DNA of 64,000 nt. It comes from Terriglobia bacterium (lineage in GTDB: Bacteria > Acidobacteriota > Terriglobia > 2-12-FULL-54-10). The notes beneath the pieces are model-generated. The model was given only the letters and a program-made list of their open reading frames with translations. It did no database searches and had not been told where the DNA came from. Below are positions 679 through 35,626 of this stretch, one piece after another. The stretch is from the NCBI GenBank assembly GCA_965222345.1, contig CBDCTS010000004.1, positions 641,625-705,624 of the forward strand, in the 5' to 3' direction. Numbering within the stretch: position 1 is the first letter of the stretch; each line of letters opens with the position of its first letter. The position numbers and the translations under genes were made by a program.

Positions 679-680
679 TA

Positions 681-1940: not shown

Positions 1941-2219
1941 TTAGAAGTTTCCTTCCGCTACGTCCTTCAAAACTTGCTTCTCCAGCGATAGCTCGGCTAC
2001 CAGCCGCTTCAGCCGCCCGTTCTCCTTCTCCAACTCCTTCAGCCGTTTCGCTTGCTCCCGTTTCAACCCGCCGTATTCCTTCCGCCAGCGGTAGTAGGTC
2101 TGCGTGTGTATCTCTGCTTCCTTGCAGGCCTGCGGCGCCGTCTTCCCGTTCGCCATCTGCACCTCAATCTGCCGTAGGATCGTTACGATCTGCTCTGGTT
2201 TGTAATTCCGGATTGGCAT
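1941..2219 (-). CDS. IS3-family transposase OrfA (HTH)
   Basis: 92 aa with YYRWRKEYGGL and a leucine zipper, typical of IS3/IS911 OrfA. Confidence 0.85.
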   Translation of the reverse strand: MPIRNYKPEQIVTILRQIEVQMANGKTAPQACKEAEIHTQTYYRWRKEYGGLKREQAKRLKELEKENGRLKRLVAELSLEKQVLKDVAEGNF

Positions 2220-2502
2220 GACCTGACTTCCTCCTCAAGTGGATTCTCTCTCTTTCCACTTGGTACAAAAAGGGCCGGTCAGGTCAGTATGAGTTCGCCC
2301 ATCAGATCGCGGCTCGCCGCGATCCGATGGACCTGCAAAGCCCGCAAGACTCACCCTGACCTTGGTACAGTAATCCGGGGCCCCTCATGATTCCGGTCTA
2401 CGTAGACTAGGAGGAGAGCGCCTACAAGGGGCACTTCGAGTCTACTTACTATCACCCCCTGCTACTGTTCAACTGACCTGCCCCCGGTTGTTGGTCCACT
2501 TT

Positions 2503-3357
2503 TTATGTTAGTCCATAAGCCGTTGCAGCCGGGTGGAGCGGAGCGGAACCCGGCCGTAACGGCAGGATCGCTTCCGGGGCTGGCGGCCGGTAGCCTAACG
2601 CGCTGTGCGGGCGAACTTTGTTATACTCCCGCCGCCATCCCTCAATCAACACCTTCGCTTCCTGCAAGGTGTAGAAGATCTCCCCATTGAGAAACTCGTC
2701 TCGAAACTTCCCGTTCAACGATTCTACATACCCGTTTTCCCATGGGCTCCCCGGCTCGATGAACAAGGTCTTTACCCCTACCCGCTCCAGCCAGTTCCGA
2801 ACCAACCGTGCTGTGAACTCGGACCCGTTATCCGAGCGAATGTAATCGGGAACTCCTCGCTCCACAAACAAGGCTGCCAGCCGTTCCAAGACACTCATCG
2901 AATCAGCTCGCCGTTCTACGTCGATTGCCAAACATTCTCGCGTGTACTCATCCACCACCGTCAACATCTTCAGGGGACGACCATCCTGGGTTCGATCTGC
3001 CACAAAATCGTACGCCCAGACATGATCCCGCCAGCACGGTCTTAACCGAAGACACGACCCATCGTTCAACCACAGGCGGCTTTTCCGGGGTTGTTTCTTC
3101 GGCACTTTCAGTCCCTCCTGCCTCCAGATTCTCTCCACCCGCTTATGGTTCACCCTCCACCCCTCCCGTCGCAACAGCGCCGTGATTCGCCGGTAGCCGT
3201 ATCGACCGTACTCGCCGGCTAACTGCAGCGTCCGGGTCACCAGTCGCGGTTCATCCTGTGGTGTCAAGGTTCGATGCCGCTGGGTGGATCGGTACTGCCT
3301 CAGCACTCGACACGCCCGCCGCTCCGACACTCCCAAGGTCTGACAGACACGCTCCAC
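2503..3357 (-). CDS. IS3-family transposase OrfB (element B copy 1)
   Basis: 284 aa rve-domain protein: WAYDFV, RSDNGSEF, WENGYVESLNG. Confidence 0.85.
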   Translation of the reverse strand: MERVCQTLGVSERRACRVLRQYRSTQRHRTLTPQDEPRLVTRTLQLAGEYGRYGYRRITALLRREGWRVNHKRVERIWRQEGLKVPKKQPRKSRLWLNDGSCLRLRPCWRDHVWAYDFVADRTQDGRPLKMLTVVDEYTRECLAIDVERRADSMSVLERLAALFVERGVPDYIRSDNGSEFTARLVRNWLERVGVKTLFIEPGSPWENGYVESLNGKFRDEFLNGEIFYTLQEAKVLIEGWRREYNKVRPHSALGYRPPAPEAILPLRPGSAPLHPAATAYGLT

Positions 3358-3380
3358 TGCCTGCCTCCGTCGGCACGGGC

Positions 3381-3659
3381 TTAGAAGTTTCCCGAGGATG
3401 CCTCCTTCAGAATCGCAAGGTCCAACGCCTGATCCGCTACCAACTTCTTCAGTCGGCCATTCTCCCGTTCCAGTTCCTTCAAACGCCTCACCTGATCAAC
3501 CCGCAAGCTCCCATACTCCTTCCGCCATCGATAATATGTCTGCTCCGTGATTCCCAACTTCCGACAGACCACTCCCGTTGTCTGGCCCTTAGCCAGTTCC
3601 ACTTCTGCCTCTCGTAGATGTCGGATGATCTGTTCGACCGTATACCGCTTCTTAGCCAT
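3381..3659 (-). CDS. IS3-family transposase OrfA (element B copy 1)
   Basis: 92 aa: YTVEQIIRHL..YYRWRKEYGSL, leucine zipper. Confidence 0.85.
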   Translation of the reverse strand: MAKKRYTVEQIIRHLREAEVELAKGQTTGVVCRKLGITEQTYYRWRKEYGSLRVDQVRRLKELERENGRLKKLVADQALDLAILKEASSGNF

Positions 3660-3737
3660 CCTTCCCCCTTTTTCAAGTCCAGTTGAAACCCTTTACTCTA
3701 ACTTATCAACTGGACCGTTTTTGGGGGGGCAGGTCAC

Positions 3738-4196
3738 ATAGGGTGCGCCTGAAACTACCTGCATTGCCTCATCGCTCCTGCGATAACGTCCAGGGTCTTT
3801 CAGATCCTTGCGGCCTTTGAGCAACATCTGATGCCACCGGAACAACTTTTCGTCGGAAAGAGGTTCCGCGAACGATCGGTAGAGATCCACCATCATCTCT
3901 GCGATGCCTTGCTCCGCCGCTCCCACCGGCCGGTCATCGGTAGCCACGCCAAGCTCTTTTCGAACCGATGATTGAACGCTGGCCCTGTCCAGAATCTCCC
4001 CTTCGATTTCTGAAGTGGTCAGCGCTTCCAGGCTGATAGCCTCAATGGTGAGCCGCTCTTGATCTATCGCGTCGAGGTGCTTGATCGTACCTACGAACAT
4101 GCCGCTTCCTATCAGGAAGTGCTCTTCCGCCTTTCTCAGGAGGGAGTGATCCCAGGAGAAGACGGGCCAGTCCGGTTTTTGCCAGTTCCACGGCAT
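3738..4196 (-). pseudogene. Fic-family protein N-terminal fragment (DUF4172-like MPWNWQKPDWPVFSWD), truncated by the IS3 insertion at 3737
   Basis: ORF 3693..4196 starts with the typical Fic N-terminus but its last 15 codons read into the IS end. No Fic motif before the break. Confidence 0.6.
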
Positions 4197-4226
4197 GAGC
4201 GATAGAAGTTTCTTCTATCGCTCATG
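4194..4226. promoter_or_regulatory. Perfect 15-bp-arm palindrome overlapping the start codon of the Fic fragment; candidate operator
   Basis: catgagcgatagaag-ttt-cttctatcgctcatg read directly. AT-rich putative promoter region follows at 4227..4330. Confidence 0.5.
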
Positions 4227-4472
4227 ATAATTTATATTTATGATCTATAGCAAGGGTTTCTATCGATCATCAGGCCTGGATTGCGTCTCATCTTTCACGT
4301 CCCGTTTCACACGCACTTTTGCTCATGGCGATGCGCAGCTTTCCAGGTCCGATCATGATGTCTAGGGGCAGATACTCGATCCGCCGCGCCCCCACATCAA
4401 GAGCCGTCAGGATCTGGATACGGCGTGCTGACCGGGCCCGAAACTGGGTCTCGAAGGGGGGGTAGCTCCCAT

Positions 4473-5366
4473 CTACCTCGCAGAACCCTGCGCGGCAGCA
4501 TCCACTTCCCCCGGAGGCAAGGAAGAGAATACGGGAGCGGCTTCGTTATTGAGCGACAGACTGACGATGGGCGCCGTGGAGGTGACCTCGAGCGATCCGC
4601 TAAAGCTCGTGAGATCAAACAGGTCCACCATATTCTGCGCATCATGCCCTGCGGGCAACAGGGTCCGAACGACGCTGGCCAGCATCCGCCCATCCGCGTC
4701 CTTGGCGGTAAAGGTGACGAGGGCTGATGTGGCGGATGGGTTGGCATAGGCAACTCCGGTCCCAAGCTGATCCTCTCCCTGTTCGGCAAAGGTGACGAAG
4801 CGAGTGGCCGGAACGGTTGCCGCATTGACTCCGGCTTCTCCCGTGGGCAACCCTTCGCTGTTGCGCCGACGATAAAGCAGGCTGGCCTTCACCGGCCCCG
4901 AGCAGGTAGCCCGTGCCCAGCCGGGCGAAAGCGGAGCGTTCAGCTCCACGTTGGTCTCCTCGTGAATCGACCAGCCGGGCGGCAGATCGTCGGTCCGGTC
5001 GACCACCGTTCCCCGTTCCGGAAACGAAACCATCAGCGGAGCTCCGTCATCGGAAAGGAACTCGGTCCCGCAGCTCACCTCCTGTGCGGAGTAGTTGATA
5101 TAGGTGATGGTGGTTTGCCAGCCCGCTCCCACGGCCAGATGCGGGAAGTAATAGGTCGTCGTTCCCTGCGCGTCAGCATCCACCTCACCCGGAGGCAAGG
5201 AGGAGAATACCGGAGCGGCTTCGAAGTTCAGCGACAGAGTGACGATGGGCTCCGTGGAGGTGGTTTCGATCGATCCAGTAAAACTGGGAAGACCAAACAG
5301 GGGCGCCATCTCGCGCACCATGCCAGGCCGCAGTTGCCGCCCCGCAAATTGGGCCTCGAAGCCCAC
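4473..5366 (-). CDS. Hypothetical internally repeated protein, probably truncated or frameshifted at its 3' end
   Basis: Two about 45-aa repeats (LPSFTGSIETTSTEPIVTLSLNFEAAPVFSSLPPGEVDA / LTSFSGSLEVTSTAPIVSLSLNNEAAPVFSSLPPGEVDA). The ORF stops early in repeat 2, and an N-terminus-like FETQFRA motif continues in another frame past a G7 tract at 4455..4461. Confidence 0.45.
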   Translation of the reverse strand: MGFEAQFAGRQLRPGMVREMAPLFGLPSFTGSIETTSTEPIVTLSLNFEAAPVFSSLPPGEVDADAQGTTTYYFPHLAVGAGWQTTITYINYSAQEVSCGTEFLSDDGAPLMVSFPERGTVVDRTDDLPPGWSIHEETNVELNAPLSPGWARATCSGPVKASLLYRRRNSEGLPTGEAGVNAATVPATRFVTFAEQGEDQLGTGVAYANPSATSALVTFTAKDADGRMLASVVRTLLPAGHDAQNMVDLFDLTSFSGSLEVTSTAPIVSLSLNNEAAPVFSSLPPGEVDAAAQGSAR

Positions 5367-5470
5367 CTTGCAGCGGCGGAGCGGTCAGGACGGGCTGCGG
5401 CCGCGCGGTTCACTTGGGGAATTTCTGCTGCAGCCAGTAGTGGTCTGGCGCTTGGTGTCGGGAAAGAAGC

Positions 5471-6043
5471 CTAATTTACTGTAATGTCGACAATGTCGTA
5501 TTCAGAAGATCCCCTATCCTCCCAGTTGTTTAGCCGAGATAAAGGGATTGCAATCAATTGATCTGTTGACTCCTCGCGCGGCGTGAGAAAGGCTGGTATA
5601 TTTAACGTGTCGACTCGCTCCGGGTTCTGCAATTGTGGTAGAGAGATTTCGTCCACGTAGACAAGCACAAAGACTTTCCCCTCTCTCGTCTTGTGAATTT
5701 CTGTGTCAGCGGTTCCAACCTTCGCTCCGAGGGTGACATCGCCAGCGGCTTGCTCGGACGGGTCGCTCAGTGACCAGGGCGTTGTGAATCCGAATACACC
5801 ATTGGGCAGTTGGGAGATTCTCATATTTTCTTCCAACGGACTTAACACCCGAACTCCATGTGTTTCCCTGAGACTCTCCCGATTCGCCCCAATGACAATG
5901 GCCTCGGGAGTCCGAGGCGGTCCGATGAGGAGTGAAATAAACGTAACGATGGTGATGATCGATGCTAGAAGCCCGAGGGCTAAAACCAGGTGATTCCTAA
6001 CCCAAAGCGTCCACTCATAAAACCATTGCATTGTTGCCTCCAT
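5471..6043 (-). CDS. Hypothetical membrane-anchored protein (N-terminal TM helix)
   Basis: 190 aa; hydrophobic segment LVLALGLLASIITIVTFISLLIG. No recognisable domain. Confidence 0.5.
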   Translation of the reverse strand: MEATMQWFYEWTLWVRNHLVLALGLLASIITIVTFISLLIGPPRTPEAIVIGANRESLRETHGVRVLSPLEENMRISQLPNGVFGFTTPWSLSDPSEQAAGDVTLGAKVGTADTEIHKTREGKVFVLVYVDEISLPQLQNPERVDTLNIPAFLTPREESTDQLIAIPLSRLNNWEDRGSSEYDIVDITVN

Positions 6044-6418
6044 TAAAAACGGAATATCCTGCTAGTGTGTCGATCTTGGCCCCAAGAATCTCGATCACGT
6101 CGTCAGAAGTGATGGGGTTATCTGGGGTTGCCATGCGGAGCCTCCTTGGGGGGCAGGTCGAACAGTTGGCGGTCGCGATCCCGCTCCAGGAAGGCATCGA
6201 GGATTTCTTTGAGATGCTTCGCGGAGACGGGGTCTTTGGCGGCGCGGTCGAGCACACAGGCACCGGCGAGGATCTTGCGCCTGGTGCCGCGCGCGCGGTC
6301 GCCTTCGTCCACGGATGGTCGCCGAGGGGATTCGCCGGTCACGATCGGTCACCCGATACGAACCAGATCCCGCCAGGGGGCGGAGCCCCCTGGACCCCCG
6401 AGGTAAGGAGGTGAGGAC

Positions 6419-7714
6419 TCACGGGGTGAGCGTCCGGGCCACACGGAACCCGTAGTTGCTGTCGCGTTCGCCGGTGGAGTACCCTCTGCGGTCGGCCGAA
6501 TTGTGGCCCCTAAAGCTGTTCCAGGAACCGCCGCGCAGGACGCGATCCCCGCAGTCCCCGCCGCTGATCCACGCCGTCCCGTCGGTCGGCGCCCCCGCGT
6601 AGTTCTCATGCCAACAGTCTTCCACCCACTCACTCACGTTGCCCACCATGTCGTGCAACCCGAAATCGTTGGGGACATACGAGCCCACAGGCGCCGTCCA
6701 TGCCACGCCGTCCCCACAATCGTTGTACCAAAAATCAAACATGGCGGCCTGCATCATCACCCCCGCCGCCGCCCTAAGACTGTGGTCGGGGCCATTCGCA
6801 TATCTACACATCTCATCGTCGTCGTTCCCCCAGGTATAATCCGTCGTCGTCCCCGCTCGCGCCGCATACTCCCACTCCGCTTCGCTCGGCAGCCGGTAGT
6901 CCTGGCCCGTCTGCTCACTCAGCCACCGCGCATACGCTTGCGCATCCTCCCAGATCACGCACACCACCGGATGGCCGTCCCCCTGCTCGAAGCCTGGATC
7001 GCTCCACGACCCGTCATCGGTAACCTGTAACACACGCTCATCAGGGTCAAGTGCGTAGCCCCCCCCCCCGATACAATCCGCACTCATCGTGTGCCGCGTC
7101 GCCACCACGAACGCCGCATACTCCTCTCGCGTCACCTCATACTTCGACAACGCGAACGACGCCACCCTCACCTCGTGTACCGGCAGTTCGTCGTCTTTAC
7201 AATACCGCCCCGACACGCAGCCCATCCGGAACCGCCCCGCCGGTATCACCACCATCTCCGGCGCGCCAGCGCGGGCGGCTTGGCCCAGCAAGTCCTCTAG
7301 CGATTCCCTGGATTCGATCAGCATTGTCAATGCCGTCTGGTAATGCTCGCCCTCCTGCCCCGCCAGTGTCAGGTACCGCGTCAGCTCTTCGACCGCGGCC
7401 TCATACAGTCCGAGCTGTTGCAACACTTCCGCGTATTGAAAATAAAAAACATCCGGGATCTCCAGGCCGTGGTCCTGCCTCAGCATCCGGATCTGATCCA
7501 GCGTTTCCTGCGCCCCTTCAAAGTCTCTTTCTTCAAGCCGTTGTTCCAATTGCTCCTCGTAGAGATCCGCTTGAATCTCCGGAGGAAGCTGCACAGCCAA
7601 GGCTTGATCGGAAGGCGCCGCCAAAAGCGCCCAAGCTAGCAATACAGCGACCGGCAAATACGTCCGGTTCACCCGCCAGGAACCGTGTAATCGCTCCGCA
7701 ACAGTTCGTTCCAT
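6419..7714 (-). CDS. Secreted formylglycine-generating-enzyme (FGE-sulfatase/SUMF1) domain protein with an N-terminal helical module
   Basis: Start set at MERTVAE (GGAGG RBS upstream; signal peptide LPVAVLLAWALLAAPS). C-terminus carries RVLRGGSWNSF and GFRVAR, hallmarks of the FGE-sulfatase fold. Confidence 0.85.
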   Translation of the reverse strand: MERTVAERLHGSWRVNRTYLPVAVLLAWALLAAPSDQALAVQLPPEIQADLYEEQLEQRLEERDFEGAQETLDQIRMLRQDHGLEIPDVFYFQYAEVLQQLGLYEAAVEELTRYLTLAGQEGEHYQTALTMLIESRESLEDLLGQAARAGAPEMVVIPAGRFRMGCVSGRYCKDDELPVHEVRVASFALSKYEVTREEYAAFVVATRHTMSADCIGGGGYALDPDERVLQVTDDGSWSDPGFEQGDGHPVVCVIWEDAQAYARWLSEQTGQDYRLPSEAEWEYAARAGTTTDYTWGNDDDEMCRYANGPDHSLRAAAGVMMQAAMFDFWYNDCGDGVAWTAPVGSYVPNDFGLHDMVGNVSEWVEDCWHENYAGAPTDGTAWISGGDCGDRVLRGGSWNSFRGHNSADRRGYSTGERDSNYGFRVARTLTP

Positions 7715-7752
7715 TTGTCTGCCTCCAGGTGGACAATATCGTTGGAAAGCCT

Positions 7753-8529
7753 TCATCGTGCAGTCACGATAATTTCCGCACTTGAACCAGCCCCGCCGCG
7801 GTGCCGCCAGCTCTGTGTCTCGACGTTTTCGCCTTCGACGCGAATCTCGCCTGTGTTCGCATCGGCGTAGGAACAGTTTCCCTTGCGTCCCGTGCCGTTG
7901 ATGGCCTGCAACTCTACGGAATAGCGCTGGCCCGCCCTGACGTCAATCACATTGCAGGCCCAGTCGTTGTCGATCTCGCCCGAAAAAACCATGCGGCCGT
8001 CAACGGTAACGCTAATCCTGTCGCCGTCCTCGCATTCATGGTCCCGGACGCAAATCTGCAGGTCAGCGGAATCGCCGCTGATCCGCAAGTTGAAGTCCTG
8101 AATGTCCGTGTTCGAAAAGTCGTCTGGCGCCCAGTGCGTCTCGATGAGACCTCTACCATAGATCTGGCGGTCAAGATCCATATCCCTATCAAGCTGGCGT
8201 GAAGCGGCCTGCGGAGTCCCTTCGAAATAACAGAACTGATCGAAAAATAAATCAAATTCAGAATCGCTACCGTATTGGTCCCTGAGGAAATCGCGGAACG
8301 CGTTCTCATATCCAAGGGTGAAGGAGTAGTCTCCCAAAAACACCGCCGTGTAAAACGCGCGTATGCCACCGGGATCGACCGGCAATGTCTCCTTAAAGAC
8401 GCACCAAATATGGTCGTCGTCATTGGCGAGGGCAGCGGGCTGCAGGGCAACGGGCTGCGCAATCAGAAGGACCAGTAGTGTGGTAAGGATAGTGGCAAGC
8501 AGTGCAACATTCAGCTGTTTTACAGACAT
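7753..8529 (-). CDS. Secreted hypothetical protein (signal peptide)
   Basis: 258 aa; N-terminus MSVKQLNVALLATILTTLLVLLIAQPVA. No recognised domain. Confidence 0.55.
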   Translation of the reverse strand: MSVKQLNVALLATILTTLLVLLIAQPVALQPAALANDDDHIWCVFKETLPVDPGGIRAFYTAVFLGDYSFTLGYENAFRDFLRDQYGSDSEFDLFFDQFCYFEGTPQAASRQLDRDMDLDRQIYGRGLIETHWAPDDFSNTDIQDFNLRISGDSADLQICVRDHECEDGDRISVTVDGRMVFSGEIDNDWACNVIDVRAGQRYSVELQAINGTGRKGNCSYADANTGEIRVEGENVETQSWRHRGGAGSSAEIIVTAR

Positions 8530-8730
8530 GGCAATTCCCTTCTTTGTTGTTGTATTGACGTATGGGTTGAAAAGGACAGAATTAATCGTAGCTTGATCCT
8601 CTCGAGCGCCGAACCGGTGTCGCGGTCGCCGGAGGTGTACAAGCTGCGGCTGGCCGAACGGAGGACCCGCGGAATTGTTGCCCCAGGCACCGCCTCGCTT
8701 GCGGCAAGATATGCTGGTAGGTGCGGGGCG

Positions 8731-17254: not shown

Positions 17255-18001
17255 TCAGATGCTAAGACTTGCCCGGTGCACTTCCAGGCGCATTTCAGTC
17301 TCACGATCTACCCTACGCAGGCACATTTCGGGATGGAGATGTAGAGCGGCGCGGTCAGTCTCGGCAATGAGTGGGGAGAACATGATGTGACCCCCGCTGT
17401 CAAAAGAGATCAGATGCGCGTCGAATGCAGCATCGAGATGCACGGCCAGCAACAGGCCGTTGTGCACGTCCAGCCGCTCGGCATCACTCTTGCATTCTGC
17501 CCATGGGATGATGTGGCTGGCGCGGAGAAGTCGCGGGTGGCTGACCCCTGTTACCGCGCAAGCACGGTCCCAAAACAGCATCAGCGCCTCGCGGAACACA
17601 TCCTGGCCGATACGTTCCTTGCGGAGCCGTTCTACCTCGGTGACTGCTGGAGGTTCGGTCAGACGCAGTCGGTATTGGCGAAGGGGTTCATCCGGTAGGC
17701 TGCGGGCAAGTCGCCAGATCGCGCCAGCAACGACGTTCAGCACACCGCTATCAGACACCTGCACTGCCAGAAAGCCGGGGGGCGCGTCGGGCAGCCGCGG
17801 CAGATCGGACTCCAAATCACGCACAGCGCCAAGGTGATCGCTGCCGATCCCATAGCCGCTATCGGTCACCGTCAGACACAGGCGGGCAGGAGCGGCGTGG
17901 GCCTGCCAGATCAGCCATTTACCCAAGGTGACTTGATTGATGCTGAATCCGTTGTCTACGGCGGCTTTTTCAAGGATTGTGCGAACTGCCATCGACAGCA
18001 T
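17255..18001 (-). CDS. HNH endonuclease (HNH_2-type, restriction-endonuclease-like)
   Basis: SHIIPWAE..DVHNGLLL..HLDAAFD motif set; 3 bp downstream of the preceding gene. Confidence 0.75.
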   Translation of the reverse strand: MLSMAVRTILEKAAVDNGFSINQVTLGKWLIWQAHAAPARLCLTVTDSGYGIGSDHLGAVRDLESDLPRLPDAPPGFLAVQVSDSGVLNVVAGAIWRLARSLPDEPLRQYRLRLTEPPAVTEVERLRKERIGQDVFREALMLFWDRACAVTGVSHPRLLRASHIIPWAECKSDAERLDVHNGLLLAVHLDAAFDAHLISFDSGGHIMFSPLIAETDRAALHLHPEMCLRRVDRETEMRLEVHRASLSI

Positions 18002-18003
18002 AG

Positions 18004-19275: not shown

Positions 19276-19440
19276 CTCAAGCCCCCGTCAGCCGGTCGAA
19301 GGCGGCCAGAACAAGGCGTCGAGTGCGGTATTCGCCGTAGCGCTCGATCTCATTGCGTTTGAGGCCGCGGAAGGTTTCCGAGGGGTAACTATCCCCGTGA
19401 GTATCGGCGGGGTCGAGGATATAGCGCAACTCGTCGCGGC

Positions 19441-23655
<4,215 letters not shown>

Positions 23656-23666
23656 GTAGAATTTCC

Positions 23667-26459: not shown

Positions 26460-26463
26460 CGCC

Positions 26464-29400
26464 CTATCCCTTCAACACTTCATGGAGTTCTTCGTCGAAT
26501 GCAGCGCGGCGGCCGGGATCGGCTGGACGCTCCATTACCCTGACGCCCTTTGAAACCAGCTTCTCAAGGATGCCCTCATTGCCTTCACCCTCTTCCACAA
26601 CAACGAGCCGTGCACTGCGCCAGATATTCCGGAAGACCATGCCCTCGATCACCAGCGGTTTTTCATCCGGGGCCGGCGTATGGTCCGATGTCCCGCTTTT
26701 CTGTGCTTGATCAGCATCAGAGTGATCCGCATGCGCAAGCCGCAGCAGGAACGAAAGAGCGGCAGGGTCGCGCCGATCGATCAGCTCGTGATCGGGCTGA
26801 TTGAAATAAGAGAGTACGCAGCGGTAGCATCCGGCGACACACGCCGGCTCTCCTGTTTCGGACAGACGCTCCGGATTGCCTTTCGCTTCGCCAAAGCTGG
26901 CCGAATCGTAGTGCATGATCTCGAGTGCGCATTGGGCGACCTGCATCAAACCGTCATTCCAACTGACAAGTTGCGCTAATGCGCCCGCGCCGCCCTCTGC
27001 GGACTCATAAAACAGAAGTGCGTTTCTTTCGTCGGAGCTGGGTGCCGGCTCGACGAGGATTTCCCCTTCTTCCAATTGGAAAACAGATTCAATACCGCGT
27101 ACCAGTGCATGCTGAATTGTGGCGAGCGAGCGGCGTCTTTCCGATCCGAGTTCGGCAAGCCAAAGCTGGGGGAAACGAAGAAGCAGCGCATTCTTGCGGT
27201 CTTCAACCAGTGGAACGATAAGCTGCTGTAGCGTGTCGGGCCGGTTCTCGTCCTCGACGTTTTCTTTCTTCTCACCAACCCACACGCCGGATTTAGGATT
27301 GATGAAGAAGCCGACCTTCTCTTTGTCCTTGCGGCGGCGCAGTCCCTTGTTGATCCGGCTTATCTGCGCAGCCTGTGCGAAATCCAGCGTTACGATTGCA
27401 CCTGCAGGATCACGAATGACCTGTTGAGACGTGAAACTGGCGCTCTCGAACGAAAAGGTTGTCTGAAGTTCGAAACCTTGACGCTTCCGGTCCTCATTAT
27501 TCGATGTGATCCGCTCAACTGGCCGTGTGCCGACATTCTCGATCCGGTAGAGGTTGTGAACTAGGATCGCTCCATCCAGCTTCAAGCCGCAGACATGGCA
27601 CTTCTCGGGGTGTTCTCCGGGGTGTCCCGCGCCGCAGGTTTTGCAAATTGCGCGGCTTTGCGTTGTCAGCATGCCATCGGGGCGGTCGCCGGCTTCTTTC
27701 AGAAGCGCTCGGTCCACGCGGAACGCGCGGCCTTCATGGTAGACGAGGCTCTGCGGGCCAAACTCGGAAATCGCGAGAAACCTGGCGCGCTGGATATAGC
27801 GCTGGTTCTTGCCGTCAGAACCGCCCTGGACGTAGGCCATGAGTGGCAGGCGGGGGAAATTATACCCGGGAAGGAAGCCCTCCGTCGCGAGATACCGGTA
27901 CAGATAGAAGTCGTTATTCTGGGTTGATGTAGACTGCAGCAGTGTTTTCCGCTGCCAGTTTCCCATGGCGAGGCGGCTTTCGGACGCTTTCCGCTCCCGC
28001 GGAGAAATCGAGTAATCGTTGAGCGTCCGCGTCGCCAGTTCCACCGTCCGTTCGGCAGCGGCAAGCAGGTCGCGCCAACGATCAAATGCCCGACCGAAGT
28101 CGGCAGGCGCACGCTCGATCAAGGTGCGGACGAATGCCTCGCGGCCGGAGTACCAATGTGGAGAATCTCCGGCATAGTCCTCCTCGAGTGATGCGAGGAC
28201 CGTTTCGATGCGCGCGGCCGCCCGGTTCGAAGCTTCTGTGGAATTGATGACCTCGGAAATGTGGGAATGGAGCGGGCGCCCCGCATCTGACATGTCGAGG
28301 TTCTCGGGGATTCGAGGCAGCATCTCGGCCCCGCTCGCAGCAAGCCACTCCGCATGAAGGTGGCTCTCGACCAGATCCCGGTTGCCCAGATCGATTGAAG
28401 GCGGAACGACAACGCCATCGACCAGATCCTGCTTGCGGTCGAAGAAATATTGATCGTGCGGGCTCTGGGCGGCGCAGTAGGTCATGATCAGGGCGGCTTG
28501 GCCGCTGCGCCCAGCGCGCCCGCTGCGTTGGGCATAGTTCGCTGCCGTTGGTGGAGCGTTCCGGAGATAGACGACGTTCATCGAGGATATGTCGACGCCT
28601 AGCTCCATGGTTGGTGAGCAAAACAGTGTGGGCAGGAAGCGCCCGCTTTCGCGGTGTTCCTTGAGTTGATCCTTCTTTTCGTCAAGCTTTTCCTGATCAT
28701 CCTCTCCGTACCGAAAGCGAAACTCGCGCAGCTCGCGAAGTTCGCTCTCTACCTGCGCCGTATGCTCGCGCCCCTCGATCCCGAAGAGAGGGGCCGCATC
28801 AACTTCAAGGGCTTCAAATACGGATTTGTAGAGATTGGCAAAGAAACGGTTCGTCACTTCCGGATCCTGTGGGTCGGTCTGCAGATGGTAGTGGATGGTC
28901 TTGGCAATGAGCCGCCAACCGATACCACCTACTGGCGCCGAAACTTCTTCGACAATGCCGTAATTCTTTGCCGCCTGCAGCAAAGTCTCCAGGACCTCGG
29001 GAACGTCACTGGCACTCAGTTTCCTGGTGCCGAATCGGATTGCGCGGATTTTTCTTGCGAGAGCGCTTGTGGGCGTGCCGCGCAGGAGGCGCTCCTCGTC
29101 CCGTGGGCCGATCTTTGCACGTTTCGGCGGATCGAGCATCAATACTGACGCGCCTACCGTGGTTTCTTCCTCGAGCGACCAGGGTGCCTTGATCTGACCT
29201 CGCATCGTTTGAGTGATCGCGTCGAGCTTCTGTCGCCCGAGGACGGAGGTGTTTACCGCCAGGCCTTTTCTCATGTGGTCGAAAAGCTCCTGAAGCGCGG
29301 ATTGCCGTTCACCGGCGGACGCCGACTGCAGGATGGGTGATGCGGTGAACTCTTCATCATCTCGAGACAGATCGCCGATGTACTGGTATTCAGCGCGAAC

Positions 29401-31707
29401 GAGACCGAGCTGTTCGAGGTTCGGATTGGTGAACCGCCATCCCCGGCGCTGATCGATCCAGAAACGATGCTGGAGACCTTCGCGGAGTACAGCTTCCGCA
29501 TCCTCTCGCGCCTGTCCTTTCAGGCCGGGATTTTCCAGCCATTCTTCGGCGCGATGGGCAAATGCCCTGTCTGCAAGGAAGCCAAGGGCCGCCTGGATTC
29601 TCGCGCCGATTTCAGGTTCTGGAATTGAGCTGCCAGGTGCCGACTTGAGGGCGCACAGGATAGCTGCCCTCAGGAGAGTAACGAATATGAAATCGTTGAA
29701 ATATCCGGCTTGAAGGGCTGCATCCTGACGGTTGTCCGTGAAGGCCAGCAGCTTGCGCGTGTGTTCGGGCAGGTCCGATGCAGCGCTATTCATCCAGTGC
29801 AGGATGCTGGAAATCAGGATCGTTGTCGCCGAGCTTCGGCCTTCACCGCTCAGAGACGCAAGTTTGTTGATATCGCGGGCGGAAGTGTTGGAAACATCCA
29901 AGCAAGCCGGACAGAAACGGAATTTCCCCGGCATGAACCAGCATCGATTCCCCATCCCGCAATAGCCGCTTGGTGCGACTTCATGTAGACGGGCTCTGCG
30001 TTTGCGGTAGGTGGATTTCAGGCGTCTTTCGCCGCTCTTCGTATCCTCCAGCCATGCCTCCGGGTAATCATCGTTGTCTCCCTTGAAGGCGAACTCAGGG
30101 TCGGCGGGCTCGGGCATCAAAAATCCCCACTCGGCCCCTTCATCTTCCTCGTCTGCCTCGACGGGGATATCGTCAATCTCCCGTTTCTCGAAATACTCGC
30201 GCCCCTGATCGGTTCGCAAAGTAACAGGGTGAAATTCCTGACCGCAGTTCCGGCAGAAATGGACCGGATACAGACGCTCTTCTTTGTTTTGCGGGTTGAA
30301 TATCTGACCGGAGAACGTTGCATCGCGCTCGCCTTCCGGACGAAGAGTCGCATACAAGCGTCCCGCTCCGGCGATGAATTGATGGAGCTTGAAGGCGAAC
30401 AGCGGATCGCCGCTCCCATCGGTTACTCCGCGCTGGTTCTCCGGAGTACTGAATCCAATCAGGGAGTTCCGAAGAGCCGTCACGCAGTCATTTTCGGAAA
30501 ACCCGCAGTCGACAGCCAGCGCCTTAGCGGCCCACTGCAGCGAAACAGGTCTCGCCCGCTCAGGCTTGTGATCAACGTTCTTCAATCCGATCCGTGTCTC
30601 GATCCAGACGGCTAGATCGTCCTGTGCGAGATCGCCATTCGTGAGCCCCTGGCCAACATTGCCCTTCAGGGCGGCCTCGACCGCCGCCACAAGTCCAGGC
30701 AGTTTACGTTCGCCACTCCTGGACGTGTCAGTTACGCGGCAGAGCGTTTCCGTAACGACCGCATCCGCTCCGATTTTGGCGCTAAAGATTTTTGAAGCAA
30801 TTCGGGCCACAGCTGCATTTTTTTCTTCCGCAGCGCCTTCGCTAGCCATAGTCGCGGACGTGCCTACGCAAATCGGTGGATGCTTCTGATCGCCAATCCG
30901 CGCCTTGAGACGGCGCATCAGCATCGCCACATCTGCGCCCTGACGACCGCGGTAGGTGTGCAACTCATCCAGCACGACAAACTGTAAGCCGCGGCAATTA
31001 TCAATGACCTTCCGGTCCAGATCGTTCTGCCGCGTCATGAGCAACTCAAGCATCATGAAATTCGTGAGTAGGATGTCTGGCGGGTTGTCCTTAATACGCC
31101 CTCGTTCCTCGTTGCCTTCCTGACCGGTATATCGTGCGAAGGTTGGGGTATGCGGGTGTCCTGCGCCGAGATAGCACCTCAGCTCTTCTGCCTGGCTGTT
31201 TGCCAACGCGTTCATCGGGTAAATGATGATCGCGCGGGTTATCGGGGGTTGGCCCGCTTTCCGCGCCTTGATCGCGGCATCGATGATCGGGATGAAGAAA
31301 CACAGCGACTTCCCCGAGCCAGTTCCGGTCGTGACGACATAACTCTGATTGTTCAGGGCATAACCGACGGCCTGCTGCTGGTGCTTGCGAAGCTTGAGGG
31401 TTCGATCTTTTTCAGCTACGGAGGCGGAGAGGTCTCGAAACACGTCGGCACATTCCGGTTCCAGATCACCGGCATTGATGAAATCCTGGATCGATCTACC
31501 TGCAGCGTAGTGCGGGTTGAGTTGGATCAACGGATCGGGCCAGAAGCGCTTGGTAGCATACAGTTCATCAACCTTCGCTTTAAGTTTTTGCGAGCGGATA
31601 TTGGTAAATGAGCGGGCGAAAGCCTTGTAATGATTGATGACGGTTTCATCAAGATTGAATGCGTCCATTACAAACTCCCGTCCGGAGCGATCTGGGTTCT
31701 GCCGCAA
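26464..31707 (-). CDS. Giant DEAH-box helicase with a C-terminal DUF1998-type zinc-binding domain (DrmA-DrmB fusion-like, or DruE-like)
   Basis: VTTGTGSGKS, VLDELH, GTSAT and QRSGRAGRSGQ, plus an internal Zn-ribbon HFCRNCGQEFH/CPAC and a C-terminal ACVAGCYRCVLSYFNQPDHELIDRRDP (MrfA/DUF1998-like). The stop is 5 bp from the SNF2 start. Confidence 0.85.
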   Translation of the reverse strand: MRQNPDRSGREFVMDAFNLDETVINHYKAFARSFTNIRSQKLKAKVDELYATKRFWPDPLIQLNPHYAAGRSIQDFINAGDLEPECADVFRDLSASVAEKDRTLKLRKHQQQAVGYALNNQSYVVTTGTGSGKSLCFFIPIIDAAIKARKAGQPPITRAIIIYPMNALANSQAEELRCYLGAGHPHTPTFARYTGQEGNEERGRIKDNPPDILLTNFMMLELLMTRQNDLDRKVIDNCRGLQFVVLDELHTYRGRQGADVAMLMRRLKARIGDQKHPPICVGTSATMASEGAAEEKNAAVARIASKIFSAKIGADAVVTETLCRVTDTSRSGERKLPGLVAAVEAALKGNVGQGLTNGDLAQDDLAVWIETRIGLKNVDHKPERARPVSLQWAAKALAVDCGFSENDCVTALRNSLIGFSTPENQRGVTDGSGDPLFAFKLHQFIAGAGRLYATLRPEGERDATFSGQIFNPQNKEERLYPVHFCRNCGQEFHPVTLRTDQGREYFEKREIDDIPVEADEEDEGAEWGFLMPEPADPEFAFKGDNDDYPEAWLEDTKSGERRLKSTYRKRRARLHEVAPSGYCGMGNRCWFMPGKFRFCPACLDVSNTSARDINKLASLSGEGRSSATTILISSILHWMNSAASDLPEHTRKLLAFTDNRQDAALQAGYFNDFIFVTLLRAAILCALKSAPGSSIPEPEIGARIQAALGFLADRAFAHRAEEWLENPGLKGQAREDAEAVLREGLQHRFWIDQRRGWRFTNPNLEQLGLVRAEYQYIGDLSRDDEEFTASPILQSASAGERQSALQELFDHMRKGLAVNTSVLGRQKLDAITQTMRGQIKAPWSLEEETTVGASVLMLDPPKRAKIGPRDEERLLRGTPTSALARKIRAIRFGTRKLSASDVPEVLETLLQAAKNYGIVEEVSAPVGGIGWRLIAKTIHYHLQTDPQDPEVTNRFFANLYKSVFEALEVDAAPLFGIEGREHTAQVESELRELREFRFRYGEDDQEKLDEKKDQLKEHRESGRFLPTLFCSPTMELGVDISSMNVVYLRNAPPTAANYAQRSGRAGRSGQAALIMTYCAAQSPHDQYFFDRKQDLVDGVVVPPSIDLGNRDLVESHLHAEWLAASGAEMLPRIPENLDMSDAGRPLHSHISEVINSTEASNRAAARIETVLASLEEDYAGDSPHWYSGREAFVRTLIERAPADFGRAFDRWRDLLAAAERTVELATRTLNDYSISPRERKASESRLAMGNWQRKTLLQSTSTQNNDFYLYRYLATEGFLPGYNFPRLPLMAYVQGGSDGKNQRYIQRARFLAISEFGPQSLVYHEGRAFRVDRALLKEAGDRPDGMLTTQSRAICKTCGAGHPGEHPEKCHVCGLKLDGAILVHNLYRIENVGTRPVERITSNNEDRKRQGFELQTTFSFESASFTSQQVIRDPAGAIVTLDFAQAAQISRINKGLRRRKDKEKVGFFINPKSGVWVGEKKENVEDENRPDTLQQLIVPLVEDRKNALLLRFPQLWLAELGSERRRSLATIQHALVRGIESVFQLEEGEILVEPAPSSDERNALLFYESAEGGAGALAQLVSWNDGLMQVAQCALEIMHYDSASFGEAKGNPERLSETGEPACVAGCYRCVLSYFNQPDHELIDRRDPAALSFLLRLAHADHSDADQAQKSGTSDHTPAPDEKPLVIEGMVFRNIWRSARLVVVEEGEGNEGILEKLVSKGVRVMERPADPGRRAAFDEELHEVLKG

Positions 31708-31992
31708 ATTCTGCGACGAGCAAACTAACTGGATGTGTCAGCCACAGCTATTCTGTTACCGGCCAGAGCATAAAATTGCTTCCACGCTGGCAAGGGCGCT
31801 ATTTTTACGACAGAACCGCCTGAAGCCCGGTGTGACCGACAAATTCAACCAAGCCGAAACAACTTGACGGTACCTCTCAAACACCTGCGCAGGGACCTCG
31901 TCGGAGGCATGCGTGCCGGAATGTTTCAGTGAAACCATGCGCCGCTCTCTGTGATGCGAGGCCTAGCAATTAGGCCGATCTGGCTGTGCCTT

Positions 31993-33393
31993 TCACTTGC
32001 TCCAAGCCTCCTGCCATGCTGTAAACTCAGAAGGCCTGATCTGGTAGCGCGCGAAATTTCCCTCGTGCAGACCCAGAAGTTCCCTCTCGGCTACCTCGCA
32101 AAACCGCTCGCGCTCCTGCTGTTCAATAAGCTCCTGTGCCCATGCGTTGACGTGGACGGTGGCCTGCTTCTTGTCCATGCGTCCGCGAACGACCGCGCCG
32201 ACAACCTTGCGCAGCGCCATTCGGTGTCGCATCCGAAATGGATCTGGCTCGCCCAGCGACTGCTTTACTGCAGCATAGCGGGCGGCGGATCGCTTATAGG
32301 CCCAGATGAACACATCGCGAAGCAATTCGATGCGGTTCAGCTCGTAGACACCGAGCACGGCTTCGGTATAAACGCCCCGAGGCACGCTCTCGAAGGACAA
32401 CGGCGATAGATTCGCCTTGATCAGTGGAATGTTCGCTGAGAGTCGCGACACCCGCTTGTTGACATCATCGAACGGCTGCAAATAGGGAAGCTGCACCATT
32501 ACGAAGAAGGCCTGCTCGAACGGATCAATGATCGCTGAGGCGGTGGCGAGAATCTGATCGAAGCACTCTTCGATGAGTTGCGGGACCTCCAGCGGATGAA
32601 AGACCGAGCCTTCGATACCGACGCCGATATGCCGGAGCCGGCCCGCCGCATTCGGATCGGCAAGCAGGTTGCCCGCCAGCAGCGCATGAAGGTTGAGAAT
32701 GGTGTAGCGATTGAAGCCGATCTCCTCTGCTGCGTCGACCAGAAACTCGATCGCGTCCTTGTGGTTAAGGATCATCTGCGCCTCGGATCGTTCCTTCCCT
32801 TCCGCTTCTTTGCCAAGATCGATCAAACGCGCTGTATCGAGCAGCGAATAGGTGTTGCCCTCAAGACGGCTGGAGTTCCAGGATAGATCGATCAGCAGCC
32901 TGTTCAAAATCTGTTTGGCATAAGTCCCGGCGGTCTGGTTGGCGATATTAGGCCTGCCGAACTCCTGCAGGTGTGCTCGCTCCGCTTGCGAGAGATAGAA
33001 GGTATCGTTGGGCCGGTACGAATCGAGGAACGCGCGGGTATAGCCAACCGGCTTACGTGCCTCGGGCGGCCGGCAGACATACTCCTGAATCTCGGTGCCG
33101 GCCTCGGAGAACGGGGGCAGGACTTGGGCCCGCGCACTGGCTGTGGGGGATCCTGTGACTGCGTGGCCTGCCGCTGAGACCTGTCGCGGCCCGCGGTAGC
33201 GCGCCCCGCGGCCCGCGCCCTCCATAACCAAGCGCTTGCTATCGACGAGGTACTTGAGGCGGTATTGCAGGGTTCTGCGCGGCGGCGCGGACTCCAGCGC
33301 ATCGTTGATCTGCTGCGCGGTCACGCCTTCCGGATGGCGCCGTGCAGCCTGCTCGATCACCTGCAAATACTCTTCTCGAATGCGCCTTGCCAC
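31993..33393 (-). CDS. Fic/Doc-family protein with a degenerate motif (QPFDDVNKR) and an N-terminal winged-helix region
   Basis: S-SRL-EG inhibitory-helix-like motif and the core LQPFDDVNKRVSRL in place of HPFx(D/E)GNGR. A Doc-like NKR is present but the His is Gln. Confidence 0.75.
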   Translation of the reverse strand: MARRIREEYLQVIEQAARRHPEGVTAQQINDALESAPPRRTLQYRLKYLVDSKRLVMEGAGRGARYRGPRQVSAAGHAVTGSPTASARAQVLPPFSEAGTEIQEYVCRPPEARKPVGYTRAFLDSYRPNDTFYLSQAERAHLQEFGRPNIANQTAGTYAKQILNRLLIDLSWNSSRLEGNTYSLLDTARLIDLGKEAEGKERSEAQMILNHKDAIEFLVDAAEEIGFNRYTILNLHALLAGNLLADPNAAGRLRHIGVGIEGSVFHPLEVPQLIEECFDQILATASAIIDPFEQAFFVMVQLPYLQPFDDVNKRVSRLSANIPLIKANLSPLSFESVPRGVYTEAVLGVYELNRIELLRDVFIWAYKRSAARYAAVKQSLGEPDPFRMRHRMALRKVVGAVVRGRMDKKQATVHVNAWAQELIEQQERERFCEVAERELLGLHEGNFARYQIRPSEFTAWQEAWSK

Positions 33394-33524
33394 TATATTT
33401 CCCTTTATTGCGTGTAAGTTTATTCGCGTAGCTTAGACTACCTACGCGCAACTATCAATAATATACGCAAAATATAACTGCTCCTAGTCCTCCAATGACC
33501 TGCCCCCGGTTGTTGGTCCACTTT

Positions 33525-34379
33525 TTATGTTAGTCCATAAGCCGTTGCAGCCGGGTGGAGCGGAGCGGAACCCGGCCGTAACGGCAGGATCGCTTCCGGG
33601 GCTGGCGGCCGGTAGCCTAACGCGCTGTGCGGGCGAACTTTGTTATACTCCCGCCGCCATCCCTCAATCAACACCTTCGCTTCCTGCAAGGTGTAGAAGA
33701 TCTCCCCATTGAGAAACTCGTCTCGAAACTTCCCGTTCAACGATTCTACATACCCGTTTTCCCATGGGCTCCCCGGCTCGATGAACAAGGTCTTTACCCC
33801 TACCCGCTCCAGCCAGTTCCGAACCAACCGTGCTGTGAACTCGGACCCGTTATCCGAGCGAATGTAATCGGGAACTCCTCGCTCCACAAACAAGGCTGCC
33901 AGCCGTTCCAAGACACTCATCGAATCAGCTCGCCGTTCTACGTCGATTGCCAAACATTCTCGCGTGTACTCATCCACCACCGTCAACATCTTCAGGGGAC
34001 GACCATCCTGGGTTCGATCTGCCACAAAATCGTACGCCCAGACATGATCCCGCCAGCACGGTCTTAACCGAAGACACGACCCATCGTTCAACCACAGGCG
34101 GCTTTTCCGGGGTTGTTTCTTCGGCACTTTCAGTCCCTCCTGCCTCCAGATTCTCTCCACCCGCTTATGGTTCACCCTCCACCCCTCCCGTCGCAACAGC
34201 GCCGTGATTCGCCGGTAGCCGTATCGACCGTACTCGCCGGCTAACTGCAGCGTCCGGGTCACCAGTCGCGGTTCATCCTGTGGTGTCAAGGTTCGATGCC
34301 GCTGGGTGGATCGGTACTGCCTCAGCACTCGACACGCCCGCCGCTCCGACACTCCCAAGGTCTGACAGACACGCTCCAC
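33525..34379 (-). CDS. IS3-family transposase OrfB (element B copy 2)
   Basis: Identical to 2503..3357. Confidence 0.85.
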   Translation of the reverse strand: MERVCQTLGVSERRACRVLRQYRSTQRHRTLTPQDEPRLVTRTLQLAGEYGRYGYRRITALLRREGWRVNHKRVERIWRQEGLKVPKKQPRKSRLWLNDGSCLRLRPCWRDHVWAYDFVADRTQDGRPLKMLTVVDEYTRECLAIDVERRADSMSVLERLAALFVERGVPDYIRSDNGSEFTARLVRNWLERVGVKTLFIEPGSPWENGYVESLNGKFRDEFLNGEIFYTLQEAKVLIEGWRREYNKVRPHSALGYRPPAPEAILPLRPGSAPLHPAATAYGLT

Positions 34380-34402
34380 TGCCTGCCTCCGTCGGCACGG
34401 GC

Positions 34403-34681
34403 TTAGAAGTTTCCCGAGGATGCCTCCTTCAGAATCGCAAGGTCCAACGCCTGATCCGCTACCAACTTCTTCAGTCGGCCATTCTCCCGTTCCAGTTCCT
34501 TCAAACGCCTCACCTGATCAACCCGCAAGCTCCCATACTCCTTCCGCCATCGATAATATGTCTGCTCCGTGATTCCCAACTTCCGACAGACCACTCCCGT
34601 TGTCTGGCCCTTAGCCAGTTCCACTTCTGCCTCTCGTAGATGTCGGATGATCTGTTCGACCGTATACCGCTTCTTAGCCAT
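34403..34681 (-). CDS. IS3-family transposase OrfA (element B copy 2)
   Basis: Identical to 3381..3659. Confidence 0.85.
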   Translation of the reverse strand: MAKKRYTVEQIIRHLREAEVELAKGQTTGVVCRKLGITEQTYYRWRKEYGSLRVDQVRRLKELERENGRLKKLVADQALDLAILKEASSGNF

Positions 34682-34837
34682 CCTTCCCCCTTTTTCAAGT
34701 CCAGTTGAAACCCTTTACTCTAACTTATCAACTGGACCGTTTTTGGGGGGGCAGGTCACTTATCAGAGGGGCCGGAACGGAGAAGCTGCAAGCAATACTT
34801 GCATTATACATGTATTCCATATGTCAAGAAAAATCTT

Positions 34838-35626
34838 ATGGATATTTCCGAGCGGCTAAAAAATCTCCGTAAGCGATTAAATATCAACCAATTGGAATTG
34901 GCTGGCCGGACCGGATATTCCACCTCGGCTATCAGTCACTATGAACTCGGCAGAAGAAAACCGAGCCGCCGCTTTTTAGAAAAACTCGAGGAGGTGGAAG
35001 CTGCGGCGGCAAAGCCCGGCGGCAAAGCCTCCGCTGGAAAGCGGACCGACCTGCAAACCATCGGGGAGCAGATCAAATCTTTACAAAAAGAGATCGAAGG
35101 CCTGACGGCGCAGTTGAACCGGTTTCGGACGCAGGCGGAAAAGCCGGAATTCAGCCTGCCGGAGATTCGCATCTATACTAAGGAGGAATGGAAGCAGGGG
35201 ACCCAGGACCGGTTGCGCTTTCAAACCCAGATTCCTGTCCTAAGGGACGAGGCGGCGGCGGGCTCTCCGCGCGAAATCGACGGACGGGACATTGACAGCT
35301 TCATCGCCGTGCCGTCCAAGTTCGTGCCCAGGGGGCCGACGGCTTATACGGGGATTTACATCCAGGGAGACTCGATGGAGCCGGTTCTGGGCAACCGCTT
35401 CATAGTGGTGGTTGATCACACCCGCCGCGACCCGGTCCGCCTGCGGGGCAGGATGGTGGCGGCGCTGCTACAGGACGGCGTGGTGGTCAAGTGGTTGGCG
35501 CGCGAGACCCGCCGCGACCGCATCGTGTTGCGCTCCCAAAATCCGGACTACGAAGACATCGTGCTGGAGTCGCCGGAGACCGATCCGATTATCGGCAACG
35601 TGGTGTTCTGGTGGGGAGTACAATAA
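34838..35626 (+). CDS. LexA/cI-like transcriptional repressor (XRE HTH + S24 peptidase)
   Basis: N-terminal LNINQLELAGRTGYSTSAISHYELGRRKP HTH and C-terminal GDSMEP..VVKWL (Ser/Lys dyad of S24). Start set at MDISERL. Confidence 0.8.
   Translation: MDISERLKNLRKRLNINQLELAGRTGYSTSAISHYELGRRKPSRRFLEKLEEVEAAAAKPGGKASAGKRTDLQTIGEQIKSLQKEIEGLTAQLNRFRTQAEKPEFSLPEIRIYTKEEWKQGTQDRLRFQTQIPVLRDEAAAGSPREIDGRDIDSFIAVPSKFVPRGPTAYTGIYIQGDSMEPVLGNRFIVVVDHTRRDPVRLRGRMVAALLQDGVVVKWLARETRRDRIVLRSQNPDYEDIVLESPETDPIIGNVVFWWGVQ

Follow-up and report, generated by a model that had tools for sequence, protein, structure and literature searches.

Two copies of one insertion sequence (IS) around a cargo are the hallmark of composite transposons such as Tn10, Tn5 and Tn9. 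Translocatable units of the IS26 type, which are circles of one IS and its cargo that integrate by recombining into a resident IS, likewise predict direct IS copies around a cargo, but without matching target-site duplications (TSDs). IS elements are also known to rearrange the genomes that carry them, examples being IS407A in Burkholderia mallei and IS481 in Bordetella pertussis. IS-mediated deletions and inversions have been followed in long-term evolution lines of Escherichia coli, and the absence of TSDs is conventionally ascribed to recombination between IS copies or to adjacent deletion, both of which are documented (PMC11708052). Here we analyse a stretch of 64,000 nucleotides from a contig of a Terriglobia bacterium (CBDCTS010000004.1; the whole stretch is called the window below), in which two copies of an IS3-family element, designated IS3-A, enclose 29,759 bp of DNA. 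We consider it likely that these are recent copies of a multi-copy element, that each is the sole IS at a rearrangement junction, and that the arrangement is neither a simple insertion nor a clean composite transposon. This reading is carried by the following observations: the copies are identical, TSDs are absent, the breakpoints are exact, and homologous sites in relatives are free of the IS. The locus resembles these known cases of IS-mediated deletion and inversion in having a single IS at a junction of flanks that are non-adjacent in relatives, no TSD, a truncated gene whose remainder is lost and several other IS scars nearby. It differs from them in that the lineage is uncultured, of a soil type and known from metagenome contigs alone, and in that partner copies and reciprocal products are not observed.

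The two copies lie at the following positions.

2474..3736, minus strand: IS3-A copy 1, with orfA at 3381..3659 and orfB at 2503..3357; flanks CAAC and CATA, no TSD
33496..34758, minus strand: IS3-A copy 2, identical to copy 1 and in direct orientation relative to it; flanks CCAA and CTTA, no TSD

In a base-by-base alignment, 2474..3737 and 33496..34759 agree at 1,264 of 1,264 positions and the identity stops sharply on both sides. The element proper measures 1,263 bp and has TG...CA termini. The last common base, a C, is flanking DNA, because IS-free homologues in relatives align from exactly 3737 (loci L129, L139 and L140) and from exactly 34759 (locus L132). An earlier reading of the window, made without database searches (the sequence-only reading), had described two identical direct copies of 1,264 bp, and apart from this one base the description holds. 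Perfect inverted repeats of 12 bp, TGACCTGCCCCC, are found at both ends of the element. The product of orfA (IS coordinates 78-356) matches HTH_Tnp_1 of Pfam. OrfB (2503..3357, minus strand) scores 227 bits with the NCBIfam IS3 equivalog NF033516, the cut-off of which is 160, and contains the Pfam domains rve, rve_3 and HTH_21. The orfB frame overlaps orfA in the -1 frame and is open from IS coordinate 242, and a slippery heptamer G_GGA_AAC at IS coordinates 344-350 has the correct register for a predicted -1 frameshift.

Elements of the IS3 family are usually 1.2-1.55 kb long and produce TSDs of 3-5 bp. The DDE (rve) transposase model, the 0/-1 frames of orfA and orfB, the TG...CA inverted repeats, the length and the TSD found at other copies all agree with this family. 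Judged from these sequence features, the repeats are an ordinary IS3-family insertion sequence with orfA, orfB and a predicted -1 frameshift. IS3-A corresponds to the copy-out-paste-in elements of the IS3/IS407/IS150 type in its 1,263 bp, its TG...CA inverted repeats, an HTH-containing orfA and a DDE orfB, the heptamer and a 4-bp TSD, but differs in that both window copies lack the duplication.

At least 16 contigs from long-read metagenome assemblies encode exactly the OrfB protein of IS3-A. Nine of these places (L001-L009) were retrieved, and each contains a 1,263-bp copy with 0-1 mismatch. A perfect 4-bp TSD is present at three of the nine (GTGC in L002, GTTG in L004 and TAGT in L006, where an epimerase gene is visibly split by the insertion), and an imperfect one, TAGTTG/TAGTTT, in L005. 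The remaining five show no TSD. Normally, as these copies suggest, insertion of IS3-A makes a 4-bp target duplication. In the window, read on the plus strand, the flanks are CAAC|IS|CATA at copy 1 and CCAA|IS|CTTA at copy 2, and no 3- or 4-bp match was found within either copy, between the outer flanks CAAC and CTTA (the signature of a composite transposon) or between the inner flanks (the signature of circle integration). The claim of the sequence-only reading that the flanks share no TSD is thus confirmed, also for the inner sides. When both window copies are counted with the nine retrieved ones, 7 of 11 copies are without TSD, so the window pair is not exceptional for IS3-A. A search for swapped 4-bp flank pairs among all 11 copies gave none that was convincing, a weak test since the copies come from several genomes.

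The closest available genome is a 2.89-Mb contig (ENA ERZ26167216 ctg495713), which is 99-99.6% identical to the outer flanks and contains both L139 and L132, these being reversed excerpts of the contig (records 178993-200048 and 2453670-2474458, respectively). At the precise outer ends of the two copies (2474 and 34758) its homology to the window breaks off. L139 aligns with the window in antiparallel and L132 in parallel direction. The left part of the window consequently runs with the contig record (at ~179.5 kb and ~189.7 kb) and its right part against it, from 2,464,537 downwards. The two outer flanks are therefore 2.27 Mb apart in this relative and in opposite orientation, which excludes the clean insertion of a composite transposon. 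By the same geometry a single deletion is insufficient, and at least two IS-associated events would be needed, one of them of the inversion or translocation type. The preference of the sequence-only reading for IS-mediated rearrangement over one clean transposition is well supported by these uninterrupted, IS-free and distant flanks. The sign of the GC skew does not change at either copy. This is uninformative about an inversion as such; as weak evidence, the constant sign fits a real rearrangement that preserves the replichores.

Copy 1 stands between IS debris and the middle of a gene for a Fic protein.

2287..2473, no strand assigned: patch of 187 bp consisting of other IS debris, which forms the flank to the left of copy 1 (weak DDE_Tnp_1_4 match, E=0.16)
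3737..4196, minus strand: truncated Fic/DUF4172 gene, predicted pseudogene, codons 1-153 of 383, without the Fic motif (PF13776, E=7e-26)

An open reading frame at 3693..4196 (minus strand) with the DUF4172 domain corresponds to residues 1-153 of a Fic family of 383 amino acids (aa) and then runs into IS3-A. In the full-length relative P0316 the catalytic motif HPFEDGNGRIGR lies beyond residue 153, and the fragment 3737..4196 is accordingly read as a pseudogene. The sequence-only reading had noted that the remainder of the gene is not found on the other side of copy 1, and had proposed to look for an intact gene in other genomes. Both points stand: the C-terminal part, taken from L129, matched no part of the window in blastn or tblastx, and full-length proteins of 383 aa exist in relatives (P0316 and P0327), the gene being intact also in L140 and in members of the protein cluster. 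A truncated Fic protein of 170 aa, P0326, might have been a second, independent case of this junction, but its truncation lies at a different point and it was rejected.

Both flanks of copy 1 are found in L139. Window 1939..2473, which takes in the debris and the end of a second IS3-family element (IS3-B, described below), corresponds to L139 21056..20522 at 99.6% identity, and window 3737..4278 to L139 10364..9824 at 95.9%; the two matches agree in contig and in orientation. The flanks are thus 10,157 bp apart and co-oriented, with no IS at either point: L139 reads ...CTGTTCAAC|CGGGAAGG... at the left-flank point and ...TTAGGCG|CATAGGGTG... at the Fic point. Its interval of 10,157 bp contains a small open reading frame, a gene for a TonB-dependent receptor, two amidohydrolase genes, IS fragments and the 3' half of the Fic gene. 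Because both flanks are co-oriented and 10 kb apart in the relative, deletion is the simplest reading of the junction of IS debris to mid-Fic; an IS-associated deletion would have taken out the Fic 3' half together with the neighbouring genes.

Other traces of IS activity were noticed around this gene. At L139 12196..12347, a 51-bp solo end of IS3-A (12297..12347) is joined to 101 bp that repeat, in inverted orientation, the debris beside copy 1 in the window, by its structure an older IS3-A scar at a locus missing from the window. In two other samples (L130 and L131) the Fic gene is truncated at a different point, equivalent to window position 3810, by a DDE_Tnp_1_5 transposase, beside a type IV secretion/integrase cluster and a set of DUF4007, PAPS-reductase and helicase genes. 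To judge from these truncations, this Fic gene is a recurrent target of IS elements.

At copy 2, the first gene of the conserved right flank is the following.

34838..35626, plus strand: repressor-like gene with HTH and S24 peptidase domains (Pfam), the product differing by one residue from P0241 of the 2.89-Mb relative contig

This gene is followed by genes for an M3 peptidase, a luciferase-like protein and acetyl-CoA synthetase and by the dcw cluster. L132 is 99.0% identical to window 34759..41149 (L132 9922..16311) and 99.1% identical to 43157..47056. Its homology begins exactly at 34759; no IS is present, and the locus reads ...GGCTGCC|CTTATCAG. The IS-free breakpoint itself is ...CCGGCTGCC|CTTATCAGAGG... 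in L132. To the left of it the relative has a Mu Gam-like gene, a CoA-transferase gene and others, and the window sequence left of copy 2 gave no match to L132. Two more distant loci (L133 and L134; repressor protein 89%, DNA ~87% identical) also have genes for Gam and GemA beside the HTH-S24 repressor-like gene, so that the uninterrupted state at the copy-2 site is ancestral. On a second, small contig without the IS, the reading frame of P0242 continues across the IS-free sequence, giving a protein with an extended N terminus. Copy 2 joins the end of accessory DNA to the region upstream of the repressor-like gene beside the dcw cluster, and the distance of 2.27 Mb from the copy-1 locus in the relative, together with the opposite orientation, implies an inversion-type or translocation-type event. 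In the relatives (L132-L134) the HTH-S24 gene is divergent from the Mu Gam/GemA-like genes, an arrangement resembling the remnant of a small transposable phage, and its Gam/GemA side is replaced by copy 2 in the window.

The comparison with L132 also provides an internal control.

41134..42580 including TSDs (element 41150..42564, 1,415 bp), plus strand: ISNCY-family element (NF033594, 372 bits)

This element is bordered on both sides by a perfect 16-bp TSD, GGCACAACTCGACAAG, of which L132 has only one copy, at its empty site. By these signs it is a clean simple insertion, and the comparison is therefore able to recognise simple insertions. The element is 100% identical to a copy in L009, which also has a 16-bp duplication.

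The enclosed DNA was described by the sequence-only reading as one accessory island. The 29,759 bp between the copies are accessory, but the term single island does not fit, since at least two blocks with different relatives can be told apart.

3737..11657, minus strand: Block 1, with the truncated Fic gene, hypothetical genes and genes for an FGE-sulfatase-domain protein, a 258-aa protein and an ankyrin-repeat M48 peptidase (Pfam)
11533..11816, plus strand: seam between Block 1 and Block 2, made up of 125 bp (11533..11657) in which the motif TTAGAC/GTCTAA occurs four times and, abutting them, a 59-codon serine-recombinase stub at 11637..11816 (Resolvase N-terminus, E=1.7e-4)
11929..33393, no strand assigned: Block 2 cargo, encoding SRAP, Y-family polymerase, TIR, HTH, HNH, 423-aa, DrmMI-like methylase, SNF2, DruE-like and 466-aa Fic proteins (Pfam, PADLOC)
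12739..12804, no strand assigned: scrap of an IS3 orfA in Block 2

Block 1 (7.9 kb) is collinear with L140 14517..6483, from another sample (ERZ25071132 ctg817516), at 92-97% identity; there the Fic gene is intact and no IS copies are present. Ammonium-transporter and P-II genes lie on one side of this locus and sigma-factor and kinase genes on the other. Window 11100..11657 matches L140 (92%). Block 2 begins at 11533, with the res-like segment, and 11533..12710 is 100% identical to L141, where the sequence to the left is a different one. The 125-bp segment thus occurs in both L140 and L141, whose surroundings are otherwise unrelated, and resembles a crossover site of the res type where the two cargo blocks meet. 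Block 2 has hardly any relatives. Among ~15 billion proteins, clusters at 90% identity held no further member for the SRAP, 175-aa HTH, 423-aa, 930-aa SNF2 and 466-aa Fic proteins, and the corresponding cluster of the DrmMI-like methylase contains, besides, only fragments of 46-57 aa. The right 22 kb therefore appear almost unique in the protein collection searched.

Two observations concern the genes of these blocks. In Block 1, ten tandem units of 102 bp (9512..10610, 64-100% identical) form the ankyrin repeats of the gene for the 798-aa ankyrin-M48 peptidase. In Block 2, three adjacent genes (19441..31707, minus strand) encode a DrmMI-like methylase of 1,404 aa, an SNF2 helicase of 930 aa with best matches to DpdE/DrmD and a DruE-like helicase of 1,747 aa with MZB/DUF1998; they would represent a mixed Druantia/DISARM-like set. 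Genes for a TIR protein (14526..15929) and an HNH protein (17255..18001) adjoin it.

An integrase-type genomic island was also considered as an explanation for the cargo. The cargo is absent at both flanking loci of the closest genome, and its GC content (58.8%) does not deviate from that of the flanks (57.8% and 58.5%). As regards the markers of such islands, the window contains no tRNA gene, no common 10-mer or longer word links 11400-11950 with 33250-33495 in a search for att-like repeats, and the only recombinase found is the 59-codon resolvase stub. This candidate was rejected for lack of a tRNA gene, of an att-like repeat and of an integrase beyond the stub.

The mechanism and the order of events are inferred, with the reservations given below. 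RecA-type recombination between IS copies may have produced the two junctions, the partner copies being now lost or elsewhere, and adjacent deletion or inversion mediated by the transposase is equally possible. With at least 10 identical copies of IS3-A per genome, recombination or adjacent deletion suffices as an explanation. Each junction would be the product of an event with another partner or target. The idea of the sequence-only reading that the two window copies had recombined with each other is not upheld, each copy instead appearing as the surviving junction of an event with other DNA. Several points weigh against our interpretation. Homologous recombination and transposase-mediated rearrangement are inseparable from sequence alone. 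The source, a contig of 900,418 bp, appears to come from a metagenome-assembled genome (MAG), and no independent assembly with either junction was found; scans of Joint Genome Institute (JGI) metagenomes with the right flank of copy 2 and with the IS end gave 0 matches each. A reciprocal junction was not found either. The Gam-like and HbpS-like genes lie beyond the copy-2 breakpoint in the relative, and their homologues at 90% identity or more have no NCBI-labelled member, unlike the window's own proteins, which carry NCBI and ENA labels. Extra loss or incomplete binning must therefore be assumed, and a pure reciprocal inversion is unproven. Finally, the Fic fragment shares 98.9% identity with L140 but only 95.9% with L139, from the genome that is otherwise the nearest, both alignments beginning at 3737. 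The ancestral arrangement at copy 1 is therefore uncertain, and the "10.2-kb deletion" is one relative to a single comparator.

The same evidence can be set against other explanations. A translocatable unit would have arisen when a circle of one IS and the 29.8-kb cargo, excised from a donor site by recombination between direct IS copies, recombined into a resident IS that already lay between the left debris and the repressor-like gene, with the result of IS-cargo-IS and four unrelated flanks. The identical, direct copies, the non-homologous segment bounded exactly by their outer ends (2474 and 34758), the essentially unique Block 2 and a Fic/Block 1 allele nearest to a different strain all agree with this view, as does the prediction from IS26-type units of a direct arrangement without matching TSDs. 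IS3-A, however, belongs to another family with other chemistry, so that host homologous recombination would be needed. A prior inversion-type event is still required for the resident junction, which makes the explanation no simpler, and the cargo is itself mosaic, its blocks being joined at the res-like site. Moreover, just 10 kb separates the left flank from the Fic locus in the relative, which favours a local origin of the copy-1 junction, and no circle or second-site copy was found in protein-cluster listings and the JGI metagenome scans. Hence we regard this course of events as unlikely. A composite transposon in the strict sense, in which IS-cargo-IS moved as one unit via the outer IS ends into a single target, shares with Tn10, Tn5 and Tn9 the two copies around a cargo, here identical and direct, and a difference from the nearest genome that is bounded by the outer ends. 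It is nevertheless highly improbable, because the outer flanks CAAC and CTTA show no duplication and are non-contiguous in the relative. There they lie 2.27 Mb apart in opposite orientation, and nothing to the left of copy 1 corresponds to the empty site in L132 (...GGCTGCC|CTTATCAG). In addition, the cargo is mosaic and the unit was seen only once, nowhere else in the protein collection searched. The present arrangement may, on the other hand, descend from a composite-transposon-like unit that later recombined.

A wrong path of the assembler through a collapsed 1.26-kb repeat could have generated one or both junctions as chimeric joins, in which case the real copies might have normal TSDs. 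The origin of the contig from a MAG and the many identical IS3-A copies per genome invite this suspicion. So does the observation that copies without TSD dominate several metagenome contigs, while a contig of 2.0 Mb has TSDs at 3 of 3 copies (two perfect, one imperfect). No independent assembly contains the junctions, and for this reason the join at copy 2 may be chimeric. However, a random mis-join among at least 10 copies would not yield flanks that are 10 kb apart and co-oriented in a relative, which makes a chimera unlikely at copy 1. The GC skew keeps its sign across both junctions, and long reads would normally span a repeat of 1.26 kb. Relatives, too, carry independent IS scars in this region (the 51-bp solo end and truncated IS3-B, a second IS3-family element, around the Fic gene in L139), which argues for real IS-driven turnover there. 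Taken together, we think an assembly artefact quite unlikely. There is also a slim chance that IS3-A often inserts with a break, deletion or inversion but without a duplication or a second copy, as proposed for IS5/IS481. The 7 of 11 copies without TSD are in line with this, and Ngan et al. (2024, PMC11708052) report that such events were observed directly. Clean 4-bp TSDs and the split gene in L006 speak instead for canonical transposition, and ordinary recombination among at least 10 identical copies per genome is sufficient. In a more far-reaching version, which we hold to be improbable, the excess of copies without TSD would reflect an intrinsic deletion and inversion activity of single copies in the course of transposition, and IS-cargo-IS would be a working translocatable unit by which a rare Druantia/DISARM-like defence cassette passes between strains. 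The preferred reading thus remains that of recent IS3-A copies at two separate rearrangement junctions.

The phenomenon as such is well known; it is routine IS-driven genome plasticity in an IS-rich lineage and involves no new mechanism. For annotation it means that neither composite transposon nor single island is an appropriate name for the 29.8 kb, and that the Fic fragment should be labelled as a pseudogene. It also indicates that a high-copy IS3 element is at work in this lineage, reshaping the order of the genes around the dcw cluster. For users of MAGs, two positions are flagged at which the contig merits a check against the raw reads. The segment of 31 kb is predicted to be prone to loss by recombination between the identical direct copies.

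Further IS remains are located to the left of copy 1.

22..621, plus strand: 3' end of a glutamate-synthase-family gene (FMN-binding), with which the conserved genes on the left end (Pfam PF01645, E=2e-36)
~650..900, plus strand: degenerate N-terminal remnant of an IS110-family transposase with an in-frame stop (frame +3, ...IETVAMESTGV*WVLLYAIRLVNARHVQEVPGRKR)
1035..2286, minus strand: IS3-B, the second IS3-family element, 1,252 bp, TG...CA; OrfB at 1075..1917 (NF033516, 235 bits) and OrfA at 1941..2219 (HTH_Tnp_1)

The sequence-only reading had placed a different IS3 element and an IS110 remnant here, in a hotspot next to gltS. The IS3 element is present. The IS110 remnant is weakly supported, with an E-value of 1e-3 and 18 bits for NCBIfam NF033542, far under the cut-off, and no match in Pfam. 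The gene called gltS is represented by the 3' end of the glutamate-synthase-family gene. Insertion hotspot is a fair description; the variable, IS-rich zone begins, by the alignment to relatives, at ~631 and not at copy 1, window 1..630 being 95.6% identical to L138 and the homology stopping at 630. IS3-B is 65% identical to IS3-A and 94% identical to L002 18173..19424; it has no TSD (AGAC / GTAT), and neither does its relative in L002. In L139, truncated pieces of IS3-B lie on both sides of the Fic gene, in addition to the solo end of IS3-A. The contig of L138 (ERZ25074053 ctg451572_39x_c, 54,431 bp) has a name ending in "_c", which possibly stands for circular. It also carries MmeI-like, UmuD/Y-polymerase and toxin-antitoxin genes and may be a plasmid-like replicon.

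The distribution of the IS3-A ends was followed by a scan of a genome collection for the terminal-repeat pattern TGACCTGCCCCCN{7,8}GGTCCA, which returned at least 119 stretches (L010-L128). Among the matches listed, the motif TGACCTGCCCCC(N7-8)GGTCCA occurs in MAGs of many phyla, e.g. Chloroflexota, Acidobacteriota, Alphaproteobacteria and Planctomycetota; this type of IS end is therefore widespread and not specific for the element. The only related IS3-A copy among these matches is that of a Terriglobia MAG (L096), with 96.6% identity over 538 bp.

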